64,000 nt of DNA, from positions 21,027-85,026 of IMG/VR virus record IMGVR_UViG_3300008110_000023; one strand, 5' to 3'. Position 1 is the stretch's first letter, and each line of letters begins with the position of its first letter. This document shows positions 1-63,440 of this stretch, one piece after another. Under the pieces are notes generated by a model. The model was given only the letters and a program-made list of their open reading frames with translations. It made no database searches and had not been told where the DNA came from. A program made the position numbers and the translations under genes. This stretch comes from a virus.

Positions 1-3000
1 ATTCAATCATTATCAGCGCTTAATTCAGCAGCTGAAGAAAACTTAGAAGGAGATGAGTTAATTGAATGGAATAACTATTATAATAGTATTACATCAGGAA
101 CTACTACTGAAGAAACAACTACTCCAAGTTCAGAAGATACTGCAACAAAAACTTTAAAAGATAACTTTAAAGCTGCTTTTGAAGAGTTTGATATTAATGT
201 ACAACAACAAACTCCTAAAGTTGAAAGAACTGATGATGAAAAATTAAGTGATAGAATACAAGCAGTTCTTGATTTACTTAAAGCTACTAAATTAAATACA
301 GCTACAGTTACTTTAGGACAAATAGTAGAAGAAGTAAACAAATTATTTGATAATGATATTGAGTATACTAAAAAGATATTCAATGACTTAAAGGATATTG
401 TAACTTTACTACAAAAAATGAGAAATAATCCTGAGTATACTTTAACTCCTAATTATACTTTATCTGATGCTGGTATTGTTGAAACAGGTATTACAATAGA
501 ACCTACTATACTCTCTGAAAAAACAAGTAGAGAAGCTAACGTAGAATTAATGTCTAGAGTAAGAGAAAATGATCCTACTCTTAACTTTATTATAGACGGT
601 AAAAAAATTGAAAGTATAGCATCTGTAGCCTCTAAAGCAATATCAGATGAAGGTACTGAAGTAGATGAAACCTTAGGAGTTTTTAGAACTATTTATAATG
701 AAGCTGGTGAATTAATATTTAATCCAAACCAGGACGCTATAGTAGATTCTAATTTTATTACTGAAGGAACTGTTATTACTATTAAAGTAGAAAAAGCTAC
801 AGGTAATATAGAAGAAGATGTTGATACTGCTGAAATAGCAATGTATGTTACTACTCCAGAAGGAGAAAGAAAAATAGGATATATACATTTACCTAGTTAT
901 GCAGGTGTACAAACATTAGCACAAGGAGAGTTATTACCATCTATACAAGAACAACTTACACTTATACAACAACTTAGAAGACAAGTATTAGAAAACCAAG
1001 ATTCTATTCTTACAACTACTGTAACTAAAAGAGGTTTTGGTAATGTAAATAAAAAAGGAAAAGATGCTAATGGTAATATACCAACATCTATCTTAAGTAA
1101 TGCTTTTGCTGGTGACACAAGAGTACATTTAGGTGTAGTAGGGCTTGTTGGTGAAAACAAGAAGATAAATAGAAATGATGAAAGTATTCCTTTATATCAA
1201 GCAACTGATTTAAAAGCAGGGGCATTAGTTATACTTTTACCACATCCAAGTGGAACTGTAGTACCTTACTATGCAATAAGCAATCCAATAGGAGCAGATA
1301 CTGGAGTTACTACTAAAGTAGTAAATACTTTAAAAGACTTCTTAGCACGTAAAATAGATAGAAAACAAACTACTATGGCTATTGAAAGATATGTCTATAC
1401 AGTTCCTGAAGGTAACATAGGCCGTAAAGGTATTGTTATAAAAGAACAAGATGGACAAAGATCTATTATAGTAGATGGTAAAGAAGTTAAAAATGATAAG
1501 AACTTTGCAGAGGTTATAGGTAGTGTATACTTTAACATGAATAAAAGTATCTTAAACTCTAAAGATGGACCTGCTTATGAGAAAGAGATAATGAATTCTA
1601 ACTTAGTGCGTACAGATGTACAAGCTAATCCTGTAACTTATACTAATGAAAGTGGTGAACAAGTAACTGAGAACTCTTATTTCCATCAAGTAACTACAGA
1701 GTTTAGTACTAACTTAAATAAAAGTGCTAAACCAAAAGTACAAACAGAAAGTACTGTATCTGATATAGAAAGAAGAAGACAAGGATTAAAAACTATAAAC
1801 GGCACTTTAAGAGTTGATTTAGGTGGATTTAGTATAGATAATGTATCTAAAGAATTTTATGACAATATACTTCATGCCACAGCAGATCCTTTTTATATAA
1901 ATTTAAAAAAATGGATTAATGAATTTAGAAAAACACAAAAACCATTTGCTGTTATAGATAGTTCTGAAATTATTAATAAATATAATGCAGAATTAGTTGC
2001 ATTAGAAGGTAAACCAGAAGAAACTGGTACTACTACTAAAGAAGAAGCAGAAAGACTTAAAGCTATAGAAGATGCTAAAGCATTTGGTTTTGAAGTAGAT
2101 GATGAATTAGAAGCAGATATTCCTACTATATTTGATACTCAGAATGATTTATCTGCAGAGCAAATAAGTATGATGAAGAATAATCCTACTACTCTATTAG
2201 TACATCCTGAGTTAAATGCAAGTACACAAAATGAAGCTGTATTAAGTATAGCTTATAAAGCATTAACTATAGAACCAGAGACTGAAGAAGTAGAAGGAAA
2301 AGAAGTATTAAAATCTACTAATAAAGAACTAGTTAAAGCTAACTTTATAGAAGGAGCAAGAGTACTTAACAACCTAGCAAAAACTAATCCTACTAATGCT
2401 ACTTATGCTAAAGCAGCTAAGACTATGTCTATAGTAGCAGGAGATGAAGTATTTGAAAAACTCTATGCAAAAGCAACTGAATTTATTAAAGAGATAGGAT
2501 TCTCTACTGAAGAAAGTGGTTTCTATAACCAAATGGAAGCTTTAGATGAAGTAGATGGAGAAGAAGAAAAGATAAATCAATTTATAGATGAAGCAGCTTC
2601 CTATGAAGATAGAAAGACTGGTGCATCTAAAAGATTTAAAAAATTCTTAGCTTTTATTCCAGCAATGGAACTAATAAAAGGAAAAGCAAAGGTATCTAGA
2701 AACTCTTTATTAATGCCTACTTTTAATAACTATGATAGTACTTTTACTATGATAGCTAATATACTTAGTGAGTATAACTACCCTAGTACTGCAGATGGTT
2801 TACAAATGATGATAAACAGACTGACTGCTACAGATATAAAGAATCCAGTTATAAAAGAAGTTGCTGCTAAGTTAGAAAAAGCCCCTCAAAAGATTAAAGT
2901 AGAGTTCTTTAACATCTTTAATCAACAACATGCTAAGTTTAAAACATTAAGACTATACTGGCAAAAAGCTAGAACTTTTAAATATTTCCACCAAGGAATA

Positions 3001-39043: not shown

Positions 39044-39119
39044 CAGTCAGGGCAGGATTTGAACCTGCATATTAGAGCGACCTGTTAAGGCAACTTGTAT
39101 TCCAATCTACCACCTGACT
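39044..39119 (-). tRNA. Degenerate tRNA / tRNA-like element (anticodon not assignable)
   Basis: Acceptor stem AGTCAGG/CCTGACT, T-arm GCAGG-TTCAAAT-CCTGC, D-loop TGG. No canonical anticodon arm and no encoded CCA. Confidence 0.65.
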
Positions 39120-40607: not shown

Positions 40608-41302
40608 AATTTATTAAGTTTAGGATAAAGTTCTCTTTTTAATTTAACTTGTTCTCTTTTTAATTGTATTAATTCTTGTGGTAAATGTACTTCTCTAGAT
40701 TTTAATTTATGACTTTTACTAAACAAAAATTTAATATACCCATCTGTTAAATAATCACATTTAAATTTATCTTTTTCATAAAGACGTTGTTTATTTTTAT
40801 CTGCATAATCTAAACTATATTGTCTTCTATACTTTACAAAATTAGGATCTGTGATGTTTTTAGTATAATGTAATTTAGATGTTATAATTCTTAACATTTT
40901 TTTTGAAAGAGCTTGTAATTCAGAAGATTCATAATTATAATTACAAGAATTAGAATTACTATGACAAGCTTTACATTTAGATAAAATATATGCTATTTTA
41001 TCTTTAAAATAATTTAACACCCAATTTTTATTACATATTATAACACCACATTGTACACAAGGCCTTCCTTCTAATCTTGCTTTTCTTTTTCCTCTTCCAG
41101 TTTTTTTAAAATTTCTTAATCTAGTATTTATATTACGTGACATTCTATTTGCAAATAGATTTAATTCTAAAGAATTATAATTATAATCACAAGATTTTGT
41201 TTTTGTTGAACAAGATTTACATTTTTTTACTATATATTTTCCACATATAAACCAATTCTTTTCACATAATATTACTCCACATTGTATACAAGTTTTTTCC
41301 AT
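40604..41302 (-). CDS. Basic protein with a duplicated Cys-rich (Zn-finger) module
   Basis: Two copies of CxQCGVIxCxKNW...KCKxC...SCxYNYxSxEL. Confidence 0.7.
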   Translation of the reverse strand: MEKTCIQCGVILCEKNWFICGKYIVKKCKSCSTKTKSCDYNYNSLELNLFANRMSRNINTRLRNFKKTGRGKRKARLEGRPCVQCGVIICNKNWVLNYFKDKIAYILSKCKACHSNSNSCNYNYESSELQALSKKMLRIITSKLHYTKNITDPNFVKYRRQYSLDYADKNKQRLYEKDKFKCDYLTDGYIKFLFSKSHKLKSREVHLPQELIQLKREQVKLKRELYPKLNKL

Positions 41303-41314
41303 AAGAATAGTATT

Positions 41315-41338
41315 AAAAGAGAGTATTTCTACTCTCTT
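41315..41338 (-). terminator. Intrinsic terminator / GAAA-tetraloop hairpin
   Basis: AAGAGAGTA-GAAA-TACTCTCTT-TT on the minus strand. Confidence 0.65.
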
Positions 41339-41541
41339 AAATTGTTTCTATAATTATCTAACCAAGTTGCATCTTCCTCATGCTTGAATGTAAGCTGAGG
41401 TTTCTTGATTTCTTCTTTAATACCTAATTCTGTTTTGATTAAATTAAGTCTGGCATTAATAGACTTAACATAAATTGGTAAACTATTGTGTTTATTAATC
41501 ATAGGTTTACCACTCTTAGTTGTTTTTTGAAATGAGTTCAT
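41329..41541 (-). CDS. Hypothetical protein
   Basis: ORF track; carries the leader motif. Confidence 0.6.
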   Translation of the reverse strand: MNSFQKTTKSGKPMINKHNSLPIYVKSINARLNLIKTELGIKEEIKKPQLTFKHEEDATWLDNYRNNLRE

Positions 41542-41562
41542 AGTTTTGTGTGTTTTTAATTA

Positions 41563-41904
41563 TTAATGATAAATATGTGGATTAGACATTTCTAAGATAA
41601 AAGAATACTTCTTATCTAATTTATCCATAGCAACTTCTCTTAATACTCTATAGATATTAAGTGCTTCTTGTGTAAAGAAACTATAATCTGTAGATAAAAG
41701 ATTGATTTCTAAATAATTTTGAACTATTTTGTTTTCAGTATGTTTATATTTTTTTAAAGCTGTTACTTTAATAGGATTTAAATCATACTTATTACATATA
41801 TTTAAATTAGTTTCATTATCCAATACTCTAACTCTAAAGTAATGAATATGGATACCATTAAAAACAATAGTACCTCTTCCAAATTTGCTTATTACACTTT
41901 GCAT
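41563..41904 (-). CDS. Hypothetical protein
   Basis: ORF track; carries the leader motif. Confidence 0.6.
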   Translation of the reverse strand: MQSVISKFGRGTIVFNGIHIHYFRVRVLDNETNLNICNKYDLNPIKVTALKKYKHTENKIVQNYLEINLLSTDYSFFTQEALNIYRVLREVAMDKLDKKYSFILEMSNPHIYH

Positions 41905-41922
41905 AGTTGTGTGTTTAATTGT

Positions 41923-42021
41923 TTATAATATGTTATACAATGTAGAAGCAAGTAATACACTAGCTCCTACTACTAAAAATGCTATTGTTGCAATAGCTGC
42001 AATGTTAAATATCTTTTCCAT
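41923..42021 (-). CDS. 32-aa single-pass membrane peptide (not in the ORF track)
   Basis: MEKIFNIAAIATIAFLVVGASVLLASTLYNIL, preceded by the AAACACACATAAAACT leader. Confidence 0.55.
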   Translation of the reverse strand: MEKIFNIAAIATIAFLVVGASVLLASTLYNIL

Positions 42022-42061
42022 AGTTTTATGTGTGTTTAATTAGTTAAATAAAAAGAGAGTG

Positions 42062-42238
42062 CTAGTGCATCTCTCTTAATTCATTAGCTCTTGACATATG
42101 AGCAAGTTTAATTTCTGTCAAGATTTTATTCATTGCTATACCAAGTACAGCATAAGACTCTTCTATGTTTTCAACATTATCATTGTTGTCAACAATAGCG
42201 TTAGCTAATTGTATAGCTAGCATTTCTATTTTTCCCAT
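42062..42238 (-). CDS. 58-aa hypothetical protein (not in the ORF track)
   Basis: MGKIEMLAIQLANAIVD...; preceded by the leader motif. Confidence 0.55.
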   Translation of the reverse strand: MGKIEMLAIQLANAIVDNNDNVENIEESYAVLGIAMNKILTEIKLAHMSRANELREMH

Positions 42239-42270
42239 AGTTTTATGTGTTTTAAGTTAGTTATTAATTA

Positions 42271-42420
42271 TCACTCTGCATTCAGTTGTAATAAAAAAGC
42301 TACTTCAAACAGGTCCTTACATGAATACTATCAAAGCCTATTATTATGCCTACTTTTATTTTTTTTTGTTACCTATTCAGGTATTACAACTGCTAGTCCT
42401 TGTGAAACTAGATTGATGCA
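42271..42420 (-). ncRNA. Candidate structured RNA (three-way junction + pseudoknot)
   Basis: TGCAT/ATGCA, CTAGTT/GACTAG and CAGTTGTAATA/TATTACAACTG stems; loop TCAC complementary to the 3' GTGA. Confidence 0.5.
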
Positions 42421-42439
42421 TTAATAAAAAAAGAGAGTA

Positions 42440-42646
42440 CTATTGTTCCTCTCTTTTAAAGTAGGTTATCTCCACAAGAAGTCTTGCAACTCTTGCATGT
42501 CCCATAGCAAAGGCTAACTTTGCATGAGGATGCATTTGTTTAAGTAACTTCTCAAATGGACCAACTCTTTTGAATCCCATATATTCTGCTATTGTACAGA
42601 ATCTTATGGAAAACCTCTCATTGGTAATCTTTTTGTGCGTATACAT
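42440..42646 (-). CDS. Hypothetical protein
   Basis: ORF track. Confidence 0.5.
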   Translation of the reverse strand: MYTHKKITNERFSIRFCTIAEYMGFKRVGPFEKLLKQMHPHAKLAFAMGHARVARLLVEITYFKREEQ

Positions 42647-42680
42647 AGTTTGTATTTTAATTAATTAATAATAAGAAAAA

Positions 42681-42793
42681 ATAACAAGCAGGTGTATGTC
42701 CATCCAATACATACACTCTCTACAACCCGTTGGCATTCAAGGTAATTACTCCTCAAACGTAGATTAGTTAGTACAATGTACTCTGCTTGTTAT
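42681..42793 (-). ncRNA. Candidate multi-stem RNA / attenuator
   Basis: Perfect 11-bp closing stem plus internal 8-bp, 5-bp and 4-bp stems. Confidence 0.45.
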
Positions 42794-42890
42794 AATAAGA
42801 TAATAATTTAAAAAGAATGGAAAGGGTAGAACATTTCTGATACATCAGACAATATGAATGTTGACTATTATTCCCTAACTCACCCTAGTG

Positions 42891-42981
42891 TACTCTTACA
42901 AGGTTGCAACCCTTGATTTCCCTATTGGAAGATGAATAATACATCAATCTTCTGGTGTTAATACCTGCTTGGATAAGAGTA
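42891..42981 (-). ncRNA. Candidate tRNA-like cloverleaf RNA
   Basis: 8-bp closing stem TACTCTTA/TAAGAGTA stacked on a 5-bp/7-nt-loop hairpin CAAGG-GTTGCAA-CCTTG. Confidence 0.45.
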
Positions 42982-43192
42982 ATTATTAGCTATATTAAAT
43001 ATAATATAACTATATTTTGAGAAAACCAAATGTTTGGTTAAAGTGTTTGTGAGATGTAGTTAACCACATCAATACACATAAAACATTCAGAGTCTATTTT
43101 TATTAAGCCTCATTAAAAAATATCCCGTATGTCCATACAGAATGTCCACAAAGAGTAGACATAAAGTATAGACACACAGGATAGCCCCATAG

Positions 43193-43582
43193 TTATGGAA
43201 CCAGTGCTTCCGCACTGTTCTTTTCTGCAGGTTCCACAAGTGGCTCTGCAACAGCTTGCTTACGCAAGGTAACCCCAGCTTGCTCCGCAGCAAACTCCAC
43301 GCTTTCTCCGTGCATAATGCACAAAGAAATGGTGTTCACGGTGTTGTCCCCAATCTTGTAATCCTCTGTTTGTACTTTTTGTACACGGATTAATGGGTAC
43401 TCACTCCCTACTTTGTACAGCTTGTACATCATAGGTTTCATTAAGCGGGTAACGCAAACACCTGTATTAGGGTCAGCGAAAGTAACTTGTGAGCTTGTGA
43501 AGACACTCCCATCTTCATTTGTAAACTCAACAGCTTCAGCACTTAGACATATAGTAGCCATAATAAAACAACGGTTATCCAC
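43193..43582 (-). CDS. First gene of the leftward block; GC-rich hypothetical protein
   Basis: ORF track (start may be MATICL at 43561); about 50-55% GC in its 3' part. Confidence 0.65.
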   Translation of the reverse strand: MDNRCFIMATICLSAEAVEFTNEDGSVFTSSQVTFADPNTGVCVTRLMKPMMYKLYKVGSEYPLIRVQKVQTEDYKIGDNTVNTISLCIMHGESVEFAAEQAGVTLRKQAVAEPLVEPAEKNSAEALVP

Positions 43583-43767
43583 ACACCGTCAAGACGTTAG
43601 TTTAAGCTGGCACTGGGGCATCCGCCCCGCCAAAACTTAGTAGGGGTTAACAACTAGGGTGATACCCACACAGCTACATATGCTATGTTTGAAAATATTT
43701 TTTATAAAATTTTTTTTGAAAACACATTTTTAGCTATATGGATATGAAAATAATTTTCACATTTCTC

Positions 43768-43798
43768 TTGCTTTTTAAATTCTTATTATATAGTTTTG
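43768..43798 (+). promoter_or_regulatory. Bacteroidetes-type promoter opening the late block
   Basis: TTG (43768-70), 20-nt spacer, TAGTTTTG (43791-98). Confidence 0.7.
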
Positions 43799-43804
43799 CA
43801 TCCG

Positions 43805-44062
43805 TAGTATTGTTTACCACAATATCAGTTCTGAGGCACAACTTGTATTAGGAACTTAGACATAGGGTTAGTATCTATAAATAATAGAAAGGTTGTCCCC
43901 TGTAACTACAAAACAGACTTCTAAAAGTAAAGTAAACTGGAAGGGAATAATAGTAGGTAAAACTACCCTTGTAGGCTAAAGACGGCAGTTGAAAATTACT
44001 TAGGAGTTAAAATCGCAGTTAAGCAATTAACTGTCAGCAAAATCAAGGGGATAGTTATGTTC
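43805..44062 (+). ncRNA. Candidate ~260-nt structured ncRNA / leader RNA
   Basis: ORF-free, directly after the promoter; at least seven nested helices including two long-range coaxial stems. Confidence 0.6.
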
Positions 44063-44090
44063 AATTATAAACAAAATTACAATTAATGAA

Positions 44091-44339
44091 GTGGAAGAAT
44101 CAATGTTAGAATATATAACTAACTATGTTGAAGAGGAGTTATATAAGAAACCAAAAACTAAGGTATTAAGTATAAACCTAACTCCTTTAGAATATAAAGA
44201 ATTAGTAGAAGAATTAAGTGAGTTTAGTGATATACATAGTGATACTATATTGAATGAAATTAGAGTTAATGGTATTAAGGTAATACTATTGGTCTATAAT
44301 AAGGTAGTAGGGTATGAACCAGATTATCTTGTAGCGTAA
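44091..44339 (+). CDS. Hypothetical protein
   Basis: ORF track. Confidence 0.55.
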   Translation: MEESMLEYITNYVEEELYKKPKTKVLSINLTPLEYKELVEELSEFSDIHSDTILNEIRVNGIKVILLVYNKVVGYEPDYLVA

Positions 44340-44362
44340 TAAACAATTAATAAATTAAATAA

Positions 44363-44986
44363 ATGGCAATGGACAAAGAGCTTCTTAAAGCTTTAACAAC
44401 AACAATGAAAAACAGTGCTAGTACTGGAACACCTAGTATAGCTACTCCAAGTAAAGGAGCTACTACAGCAGTACCTTCTAAGAAAACTATGAATCCACTT
44501 ATTACTGAGGATATGGTAGATTTTCTTAACTACAGAATACAACAAGAAGAGTACTCTAGTAGAGTATACAAAGCAATGGCTATGTACCTAAGTAATAAAG
44601 GATATGTTAATGCTTCTAAATTATGGGATAAATACTCTGATGAAGAAATGGCACATGCAGACTTTGCAAGAACTTATATTCTTTCTTTTGGTATACAACC
44701 AGTAACTCCTAGGTTAGATCAACCACAACAGGATTTTACAGGACTGCCTCAGATTATACAAATGTCTTTTGATCATGAAGTAGAAGTAAGTACTCAATGT
44801 AAGAAGTTAGCTGATGCTGCATTTAAAAAAGCAGATCATATGTTATATGAGTTAGCTCTTAAGTATCTAAAGGAACAAGTAGAAGAGCATGATAAAATGC
44901 AAAACTGGGTAGACCAATTAGAAGCTTTTGGTACTGACAAAATTGCAATGAGGTTATTAGACCATGAAATGAAAGATTATCTATAG
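44363..44986 (+). CDS. Ferritin
   Basis: Ferroxidase ligands QEEYSS..Y, EEMAHA, EVEV, EQVEE; low-complexity N-terminal extension. Confidence 0.88.
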   Translation: MAMDKELLKALTTTMKNSASTGTPSIATPSKGATTAVPSKKTMNPLITEDMVDFLNYRIQQEEYSSRVYKAMAMYLSNKGYVNASKLWDKYSDEEMAHADFARTYILSFGIQPVTPRLDQPQQDFTGLPQIIQMSFDHEVEVSTQCKKLADAAFKKADHMLYELALKYLKEQVEEHDKMQNWVDQLEAFGTDKIAMRLLDHEMKDYL

Positions 44987-63257: not shown

Positions 63258-63440
63258 ATGATAGATTATAAATATGCCTTTGTTTGTAATGAGATAACTA
63301 ATAATTTATATGCATTAGTAATGTCTTGTTGGTATACAGATGAAGAAGGTAATAGAGTAGATGTTAAGTCTGAAACAAAATTAAATTTAAACTTACAAGA
63401 ATGTTTTGATCTAGCTCAAGCATTTGTAATACCTGAATAA
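63258..63440 (+). CDS. Hypothetical protein
   Basis: ORF track. Confidence 0.55.
   Translation: MIDYKYAFVCNEITNNLYALVMSCWYTDEEGNRVDVKSETKLNLNLQECFDLAQAFVIPE

Follow-up and report, generated by a model that had tools for sequence, protein, structure and literature searches.

The element described here comes from a viral record of 85 kb that has direct terminal repeats and ~29% G+C. Bases 21027–85026 of the record (64,000 nucleotides) were analysed; this whole stretch is hereafter called the window, and positions are given in its coordinates. The sequence of the window is present in sequencing runs from freshwater and lake metagenomes. Within the genome of this uncultured phage from a lake, the element belongs to the early region, where it sits in a run of small minus-strand genes immediately past a strand switch. 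Its upstream neighbour is a gene for a 68-aa protein (42440–42646, minus strand), and its downstream neighbour is a gene for a 58-aa protein (42062–42238, minus strand), which is preceded by an A/C-rich leader common to neighbouring genes. Pfam and PHROG gave no family for either protein; homologues of the 58-aa protein occur at 84–100% identity, and the two flanking proteins taken together at 82–100%. A plus-strand open reading frame of 59 aa (42245–42424), which is low-complexity and has no family match, was rejected as a gene. Among the small early genes there is also a tRNA gene (39044–39119, minus strand; Rfam 41.7 bits).

The stop codon of the 68-aa gene lies inside a hairpin with an AGAGAG...CTCTCT stem (42433–42457, minus strand), and a U-run follows (42432–42426, minus strand). 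Read from the sequence, hairpin and U-run together look like a terminator, which borders the putative ribozyme; a terminator scan did not call the hairpin because its loop exceeds 8 nt. Hairpins with AGAGAG/CTCTCT stems close three successive small genes (42429–42457, 42053–42077 and 41317–41338, all on the minus strand), and the U-run of the first of these supplies the 5′ strand of the outermost helix described below. Upstream of the 68-aa gene is an ORF-free stretch of ~540 nt (42650–43190, minus strand), for which Rfam gave no match and which contains, at ~42790–42680, a long hairpin, AACAAGCAG...CTGCTTGTT, with a U-run after it.

An earlier note had proposed, for the space between the two flanking genes, a minus-strand RNA in the form of a three-way junction with a pseudoknot between a loop and the 3′ tail. 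Each of the parts it named is present: TGCAT (42420–42416) faces ATGCA (42281–42277), CTAGT(T) (42411–42406) faces (G)ACTAG (42398–42393), an 11-bp stem encloses a loop that the note put at ~90 nt and that measures 88 nt, and the tail GAGTGA (42276–42271) offers GTG (42274–42272) for pairing with the loop bases CAC (42404–42402). The same three-way junction is the minimum-free-energy fold of the minus strand. A fourth, outer helix had been missed (UUAU, 42427–42424, with AUAA, 42271–42268), and because this helix is added to the other three, the element spans 42268–42427 (minus strand).

In the nomenclature of the twister self-cleaving ribozymes, a class said to go back to Roth et al. in 2014, the P1 of the earlier note is P2, its P2 is P4 with the loop L4, its P3 is P5, and its pseudoknot is T1 (or PK2). 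Read 5′ to 3′ on the minus strand, the element opens with UUAU, the 5′ strand of P1, which overlaps the end of the upstream U-run, and continues with the L1 5′ strand UAA (42423–42421), the P2 5′ strand UGCAU, the L2 5′ strand CAAU (42415–42412) and the P4 hairpin (42411–42393; stem CUAGU, 42411–42407, with ACUAG, 42397–42393), which is closed by loop L4, UUCACAAGG (42406–42398). The optional stem P5 (42392–42283) follows, its 11-bp base formed by CAGTTGTAATA (42392–42382) and TATTACAACTG (42293–42283) around the 88-nt variable interior (42381–42294). The L2 3′ strand (A42282), the P2 3′ strand AUGCA, the L1 3′ strand GAGUG (42276–42272), whose last three bases form T1 with CAC of L4, and the P1 3′ strand AUAA complete the element. 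The only differences between near-identical relatives and the window are one in the L2 linker (42413) and three in the P5 interior (42348, 42349 and, as a deletion, 42359); a close relative reads CAUU in the L2 5′ strand (42413 T>A on the plus strand).

Judged on this single sequence, the helices and the pseudoknot are not above chance. For the minus strand, 32 of 200 shuffled sequences fold equally well, which corresponds to z = -1.0 (plus strand, z = +0.7), and the window holds 36 inverted-repeat pairs that have an exact seed of ≥11 nt and arms within 150 nt, mostly inside genes. In addition, in 11 syntenic distant relatives found via a ferritin-like gene there was no DNA, protein or covariance-model match to 41300–44400; over such a distance, then, the element shows no syntenic conservation. 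These observations are on the side of a chance fold in an AT-rich spacer that holds merely a terminator and a promoter or leader. That reading is refuted by the homologous loci described next, at least 118 in number, with compensatory changes in all helices.

The flanking genes did not lead to relatives, either when viral contigs were searched with the two small flanking proteins and a 122-aa neighbour or when viral and metagenome contigs were searched by alignment of the 58-aa protein or with a 54-base degenerate coding pattern; blastn gave no match among GenBank phages. In more distant contigs from four sequencing runs (Logan contigs), the hairpin and the 3′ arm are kept while flanks and interior are unlike, and we therefore made pattern searches. 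The exact 19-mer of the P4 hairpin matches one viral contig (L014), in which P2 reads TGTAT/ATACA versus TGCAT/ATGCA in the window, the 11th pair of the long stem is G-C versus A-T, and the interior is unrelated. A 19-base pattern from the 3′ side, ATTACAACTGANTNCAGAG, matches at least 118 viral contigs. Among the matches listed, 111 distinct instances have one common layout, and 62 simple members from among them were aligned (alignment A4); a covariance model, R1, was built from this alignment. R1 finds one copy in this genome, at 100 bits. A second 21-nt match in the window (63419–63439) lies inside coding sequence and was dismissed as chance. The element is also met in RNA libraries, as a contig that covers 42248–42396 but, like such contigs generally, shows no ends, strand or level and comes from a kind of library that can contain DNA. 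A second RNA-library contig, which likewise shows no RNA ends, matches the window at 42382–42424 alone with 5 differences and spans the predicted cleavage site; its upstream flank is the same as the sequence upstream of the member in L112. The two contigs speak neither for nor against transcription or cleavage.

The fold is conserved across the 62 members and covaries in every helix and in the pseudoknot, and these comparative data make it significant. Paired cells make up 92.6% of A4 versus 82.5% in shuffles, the covariation score is 0.304 versus 0.119 (reached by 0 of 500 shuffles), and pairing falls to 30–50% when the 3′ partners are slid by 1–3 columns; all five whole-structure measures beat both the shuffles and the slid controls. 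Homologues and covariation, which the earlier note had asked for, thus bear out its three-way junction. The outer helix P1, which joins the bases just 5′ of UAA with those just 3′ of GAGGG, covaries at 6 of 6 pairs, and in the twister register it has a mean of 3.16 contiguous pairs, whereas 2000 shuffles of the partners gave 1.37 ± 0.14 and never more than 1.85. P2 is 100% paired, with covariation at two of its five pairs (C-G 58 / U-A 4 and C-G 53 / U-A 8 / U-G 1), and P4 covaries at all five stem pairs, with 99.4% of cells paired. The 3-bp pseudoknot T1 is also 100% paired: at its middle position 52 members have C-G, 10 have A-U and none is unpaired, so that the loop-to-tail contact of the earlier note holds throughout; the window, with loop CAC and tail GUG, belongs to the A-U minority.

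In P5 the 11th pair covaries. The P5 interior could not be aligned between members and varies in length (38–175 nt in the aligned set, up to 440 nt across the family), as expected of the large expendable loop that had been proposed. The P5 base, CAGUUGUAAU/AUUACAACUG, and the 3′ strand are near-constant across phages with terminases 24% identical. This constancy, unusual for an optional stem, arises partly because the search pattern selected for it; a member that R1 found outside the search pattern has the P5 stem CAGAUAUAAUA/UAUUAUAUUUG, and P5 therefore covaries once the pattern no longer fixes it. Orientation is fixed as well, and to the minus strand, as the earlier note had argued, since the complementary strand would have A-C mismatches in place of the frequent G-U pairs; the first P1 pair, for instance, is U-G in 21 members.

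We consider it likely that the element at 42268–42427 (minus strand) is a self-cleaving ribozyme of the twister class, type P1, which lacks P3, carries the rare P5 with an 88-nt insert, and would cut between U42423 and A42422 and so separate two messages. The earlier note could not match the RNA to twister. This is wrong: with the outer stem included, the element lines up with the type-P1 consensus of Rfam. That consensus reads ccuu-UAA-cgCc-GC-[P3]-cCG GUCCCAAGCC CGg-gUAAA-gGcg-GAGGG-aagg, and the family reads P1-UAA-UGCAC-CAUU-CUCAC UUCCCAAGG GUGAG-[P5]-A-GUGCA-GAGGG-P1′. Common to both are an internal loop inside P1 that has UAA as its 5′ and GAGGG as its 3′ strand, a P2 directly after it, and a P4 loop containing UCCCAAG, of which CCC pairs with the GGG of GAGGG to form T1. 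Both are intergenic and occur in phage (RF03160, clan CL00120).

In this layout the twister active site requires U-A-A and the G-A at the start of GAGGG, and none of these nucleotides varies among the 62 members; the former is equal to the UAA of the Rfam type-P1 consensus. On the 3′ strand of L1 the positions GAG-G are invariant and the fourth is G or U, which fits the GAGGG of Rfam and covers the GAGUG of the window; loop L4 reads UUC[C/A]CAAGG in every member, and the L2 5′ strand is CAUU, CAUAA or CACAA, with C and A invariant. The window strand UC-AAU at L2 resembles GCC-AAU of the rice twister. Of the optional stems of the class, P3 is absent, and the single extra stem stands between P4 and the P2 3′ strand, which is the P5 position. 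Published twisters have the optional stems P0, P3 and P5, with P5 in ~1% of members, cleave at U-A, and join L4 to L1 and L2 through T1 and T2 (PMC6154101); P3 is located on the 5′ side of L2 (PMC11662667). By analogy with these ribozymes, the scissile bond is predicted between U42423 and A42422, and A42422 and G42276 are presumed to serve as general acid and general base, respectively. We infer catalytic activity of the element from this correspondence. The ribozyme-type core that the earlier note had guessed at is supported by covariation, G-U pairs and co-orientation with genes, with catalysis standing as a prediction.

The family also departs from type P1 in several respects. It has no P3, and a long P5 stands between P4 and the P2 3′ strand, with a near-constant 10-bp base and a variable interior of 38–440 nt. 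P2 has 5 bp, or else 4 bp plus the second pseudoknot, PK1 (or T2; 2 bp), which would be CC:GG (UC:GG in the window) instead of GC:GC; U42416 and the C of L2 could pair here with G42399 and G42398, the last two bases of L4. Twisters tolerate wobbles and imperfections, including wobbles in PK1 (PMC11662667), and a CC:GG PK1 is plausible on that account. PK1 has no covariation support because its columns are invariant or C/U; moreover, its first base (C/U) also covaries with the base 5′ of the P2 3′ strand (C-G 53, U-A 8, U-G 1), and PK1 thus competes with the covarying fifth pair of P2. Finally, the L2 3′ strand is A-R instead of UAAA: the conserved adenosines of this strand are absent, and A and G/A alone stand between P5 and the P2 3′ strand (A42282 and A42281 in the window).

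Rfam models miss the family. The element of the window matched no Rfam model, whether at gathering thresholds or at E ≤ 10, and the compact members L138 and L159 (96 and 72 nt) gave no twister hit. The most likely cause is the position of the CCCAAG hairpin, which the twister-P1 model would require to be the second hairpin. The best compact member (L034:261-325, 65 nt) scores 18.8 bits (E = 0.12), against a gathering score of 67.2; there the model aligns the outer shell, P1, UAA, P2 and GAGGG, with high posterior probability. One contig carries a twister-P1 match of 48.5 bits (L070:855-923, plus strand; E = 9e-10), which also falls below the gathering score of 67.2. This match has P3, a GC PK1 and T1 as CCA:UGG, lies 110 nt upstream of a family member, and has in common with that member a 5′ string, UUGUUAAUGCA, that runs through P1, UAA and P2; a MAFFT alignment of the match with compact members gave no structurally meaningful result. 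Because no member attains the gathering score, we file the family as twister-class by architecture and not as a member of RF03160. The earlier note had made the novelty of the RNA depend on the absence of an already described Rfam family; by that criterion the case is borderline, since no Rfam model reaches threshold but the class itself is described. The new RNA class that the note implied is not supported. The hammerhead, HDV-like, pistol, hatchet and twister-sister models of Rfam gave no hit at E ≤ 10 in the window or the member loci.

Several of these features would also be expected of a structured RNA that does not cleave, either derived from twister or convergent on it, that acts as a pseudoknotted 5′ leader or protein platform and shields the message or recruits a factor via the P5 base. 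The missing adenosines of the L2 3′ strand, the failure of Rfam models even on compact members, and the near-constancy of the P5 base and 3′ strand across phages with 24%-identical terminases are all on its side. So are relatives without the pseudoknot, found in L023 (11800-11935 and 12525-12645, plus strand), in L102 (minus strand, two adjacent copies), and also in L086 and L089. These keep the P5 stem, GUGCA and GAGGG (GAGAG in L102) and lack the UAA bulge and the CCCAAGG loop. Their tail is instead base-paired with a CCCUU located upstream (CUCUC in L102), in a continuous 10-bp helix, CCCUUUGCAC/GUGCAGAGGG, that in L023 and L102 takes the place of both the bulge and the pseudoknot; the small hairpin of these relatives has a GNRA-like loop. 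To judge from their sequences, such relatives probably do not cleave, and not every carrier of the 3′ motif can therefore be a twister. For the main group, however, it is difficult to account for the invariance of UAA and of the G-A of GAGGG, seen in 62 of 62 members, unless the RNA is catalytic. The search pattern itself partly created the constancy of P5, as the covarying P5 of the member found by the covariance model indicates, and a sub-gathering twister match with the same P1-UAA-P2 string stands beside a member in L070. We therefore regard a non-catalytic role as unlikely and a twister-class ribozyme as the better account of the main group.

Other variants extend the architecture in the P4 loop. 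In one subtype an extra domain is found on the 5′ side of this loop (L111:2640-2830, plus strand, and L039:8360-8570; also L020, L022, L024, L026, L033, L044, L097, L103, L109 and L130), consisting of a short hairpin (GUGG..CCAC or GUGAAAC-CAC) and a stem, CUGAUUAAC...GUUAAUCAG, with a variable insert, after which comes CUCCCAAGG. In L019 and L114 the 5′ flank reads CCCAA directly before UGCAC and the CCC loop is intact; this upstream CCC could pair with the GGG of GAGGG in place of the P4 loop, in which case an inactive alternative to T1 would form. Tandem copies occur in L036 (9240-9460, plus strand), L102 and L019, where the next AAUGCACC starts a few bases past the previous GAGG(G/A) tail. 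Taken together, the constant P5 base with its variable insert, the P4-loop domains and the continuous-helix relatives allow a further reading, that of a distinct phage RNA module that spreads horizontally, in which cleavage is optional or switchable and a conserved arm is kept for another use, such as docking of a protein or nuclease or as a landing pad for inserted genes. We hold this to be improbable. CRISPR-repeat mimicry, integron attC sites and IS200/605 ends, which the GTTGTAAT...ATTACAAC arms bring to mind, were dropped, since their motifs are not matched by the element and every conserved position is accounted for by the twister layout.

With regard to genomic context, 61 of the 62 members are intergenic and 51 lie on the strand of the nearest downstream ORF. 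The next same-strand ATG follows at a median distance of 130 nt, with a cluster at 23–42 nt to which the element of the window, at 25 nt, belongs; the downstream genes mostly encode unrelated small proteins. In the window, the ATG of the 58-aa gene lies ~30 nt past the last base of P1, or 25 nt when counted from a 9-nt flank. tRNA genes are found within a few kb in 24 of 60 loci and are rarely adjacent. In L126 the member (1852-2076, minus strand) ends a few bases from the 5′ end of a same-strand tRNA-Gln gene, and in L079 the member lies between two tRNA genes. R1 found one to three copies in five other phage genomes of 100–118 kb, the large terminases of which are ~24% identical to that of this phage. 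A pattern scan of bacterial genome assemblies returned 30 hits, close to the number that would arise by chance from a pattern with 17 fixed bases in a collection of this size. The covariance model accepts only ~10 loci as true members; these all lie on short MAG contigs whose assigned phyla are inconsistent, and they therefore point to no host.

An element with this distribution might be thought to act as DNA, as a miniature inverted-repeat element or a single-stranded DNA hairpin site with P2 and P5 as termini and the interior as cargo. It has long-range inverted repeats around a variable interior of ~40–440 nt, occurs in one to three copies per genome and sometimes in tandem (L036, L102), adjoins unrelated genes in distantly related phages, and in the window looks inserted, with a terminator on one side and the leader typical of the genes on the other. 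A DNA repeat, however, would have no need of the pseudoknot or the unpaired UAA/GAGGG loop, both of which are conserved, and G-U pairs are tolerated on one strand only. In addition, members are oriented like the surrounding genes, no transposase or target-site duplication was seen, and this genome has a single copy. A DNA-level or mobile element is thus very unlikely, and we return to an RNA of the twister class in what follows.

If the element cleaves as predicted, it would act on the early messages of the phage. The ribozyme would be transcribed together with the early genes and in their direction, by read-through from the upstream gene or from an early promoter, and the terminator-like hairpin and U-run just upstream may limit transcription into it. 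As the RNA emerged, P1 and P2 would form on either side of an internal loop of UAA and GAGUG, and the P4 loop would dock onto this internal loop through the 3-bp pseudoknot CAC:GUG. The RNA backbone would then be cut, by the RNA itself, between U42423 and A42422, which would part the message of the 68-aa gene from the downstream message. The upstream RNA would end in a 2′,3′-cyclic phosphate just past its hairpin, and the mRNA of the 58-aa gene would begin with a 5′-OH and a compact pseudoknotted ribozyme as its 5′ leader, ~30 nt before the ATG. We infer that the effect on the messages would be the processing of a polycistronic transcript, combined with a shielded 5′ end, and that message stability or translation may be affected.

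By architecture, the family is a large branch of twisters in environmental phages that lacks P3, bears P5 and is missed by Rfam models. Because it escapes Rfam, and because one exact pattern recovers it from at least 118 viral contigs, counts of phage ribozymes are too low, and the branch could serve as an added seed for Rfam. It also offers a natural experiment on the twister core, which here lacks P3, has P5 and a shorter L2 3′ strand, and would have a flipped PK1. A single predicted ribozyme ~30 nt before a start codon is a further case to consider when asking what role self-cleaving ribozymes play in phages. Neither the class of RNA nor the role proposed for it is new, which makes the gain incremental.

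Among known twisters, the closest in layout are those with P5 and L5 (PMC6154101; tested in PMC11662667) and the permuted type P5 (RF02684), which likewise have a stem between P4 and the P2 3′ strand; the architecture is therefore one that the class definition allows. The literature gives no consensus for P5 and L5, which are highly variable, whereas the P5 base of the family is strongly conserved, partly by ascertainment. In contrast to the permuted type P5, the termini of the family lie in P1 and not in P5. The family would be, like twister-sister (RF02681), a junction-type small ribozyme, and the P4-loop of twister-sister is similar to that of twister (PMC6154101). However, a 2017 review holds that the twister-sister model cannot form the loop-loop pseudoknot of twister and is without some of its key conserved nucleotides (PMC6154101); in the family, T1 covaries, UAA and GAGGG are present, and the Rfam twister-sister model gives no hit.

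The setting of the element recalls that of the hammerheads and twisters of prophages and phages (PMC3088659; PMC6765202), which are likewise intergenic, co-oriented with genes, placed by unrelated small genes and sometimes tandem. The hammerheads among these have a different catalytic fold (PMC3088659; PMC6765202), and the genome studied here has one copy and no array. Ribozymes that flank single prophage genes are thought to cut long transcripts, a role proposed since 2011 and supported by the in vitro cleavage of polycistronic fragments (PMC3088659; PMC6765202). In an archaeal virus, a hammerhead stands 13 nt before a start codon, and a mapped transcript 5′ end lies ≤3 nt from its cleavage site (PMC3088659); the element described here, ~30 nt before the start codon of the 58-aa gene, occupies a similar position.
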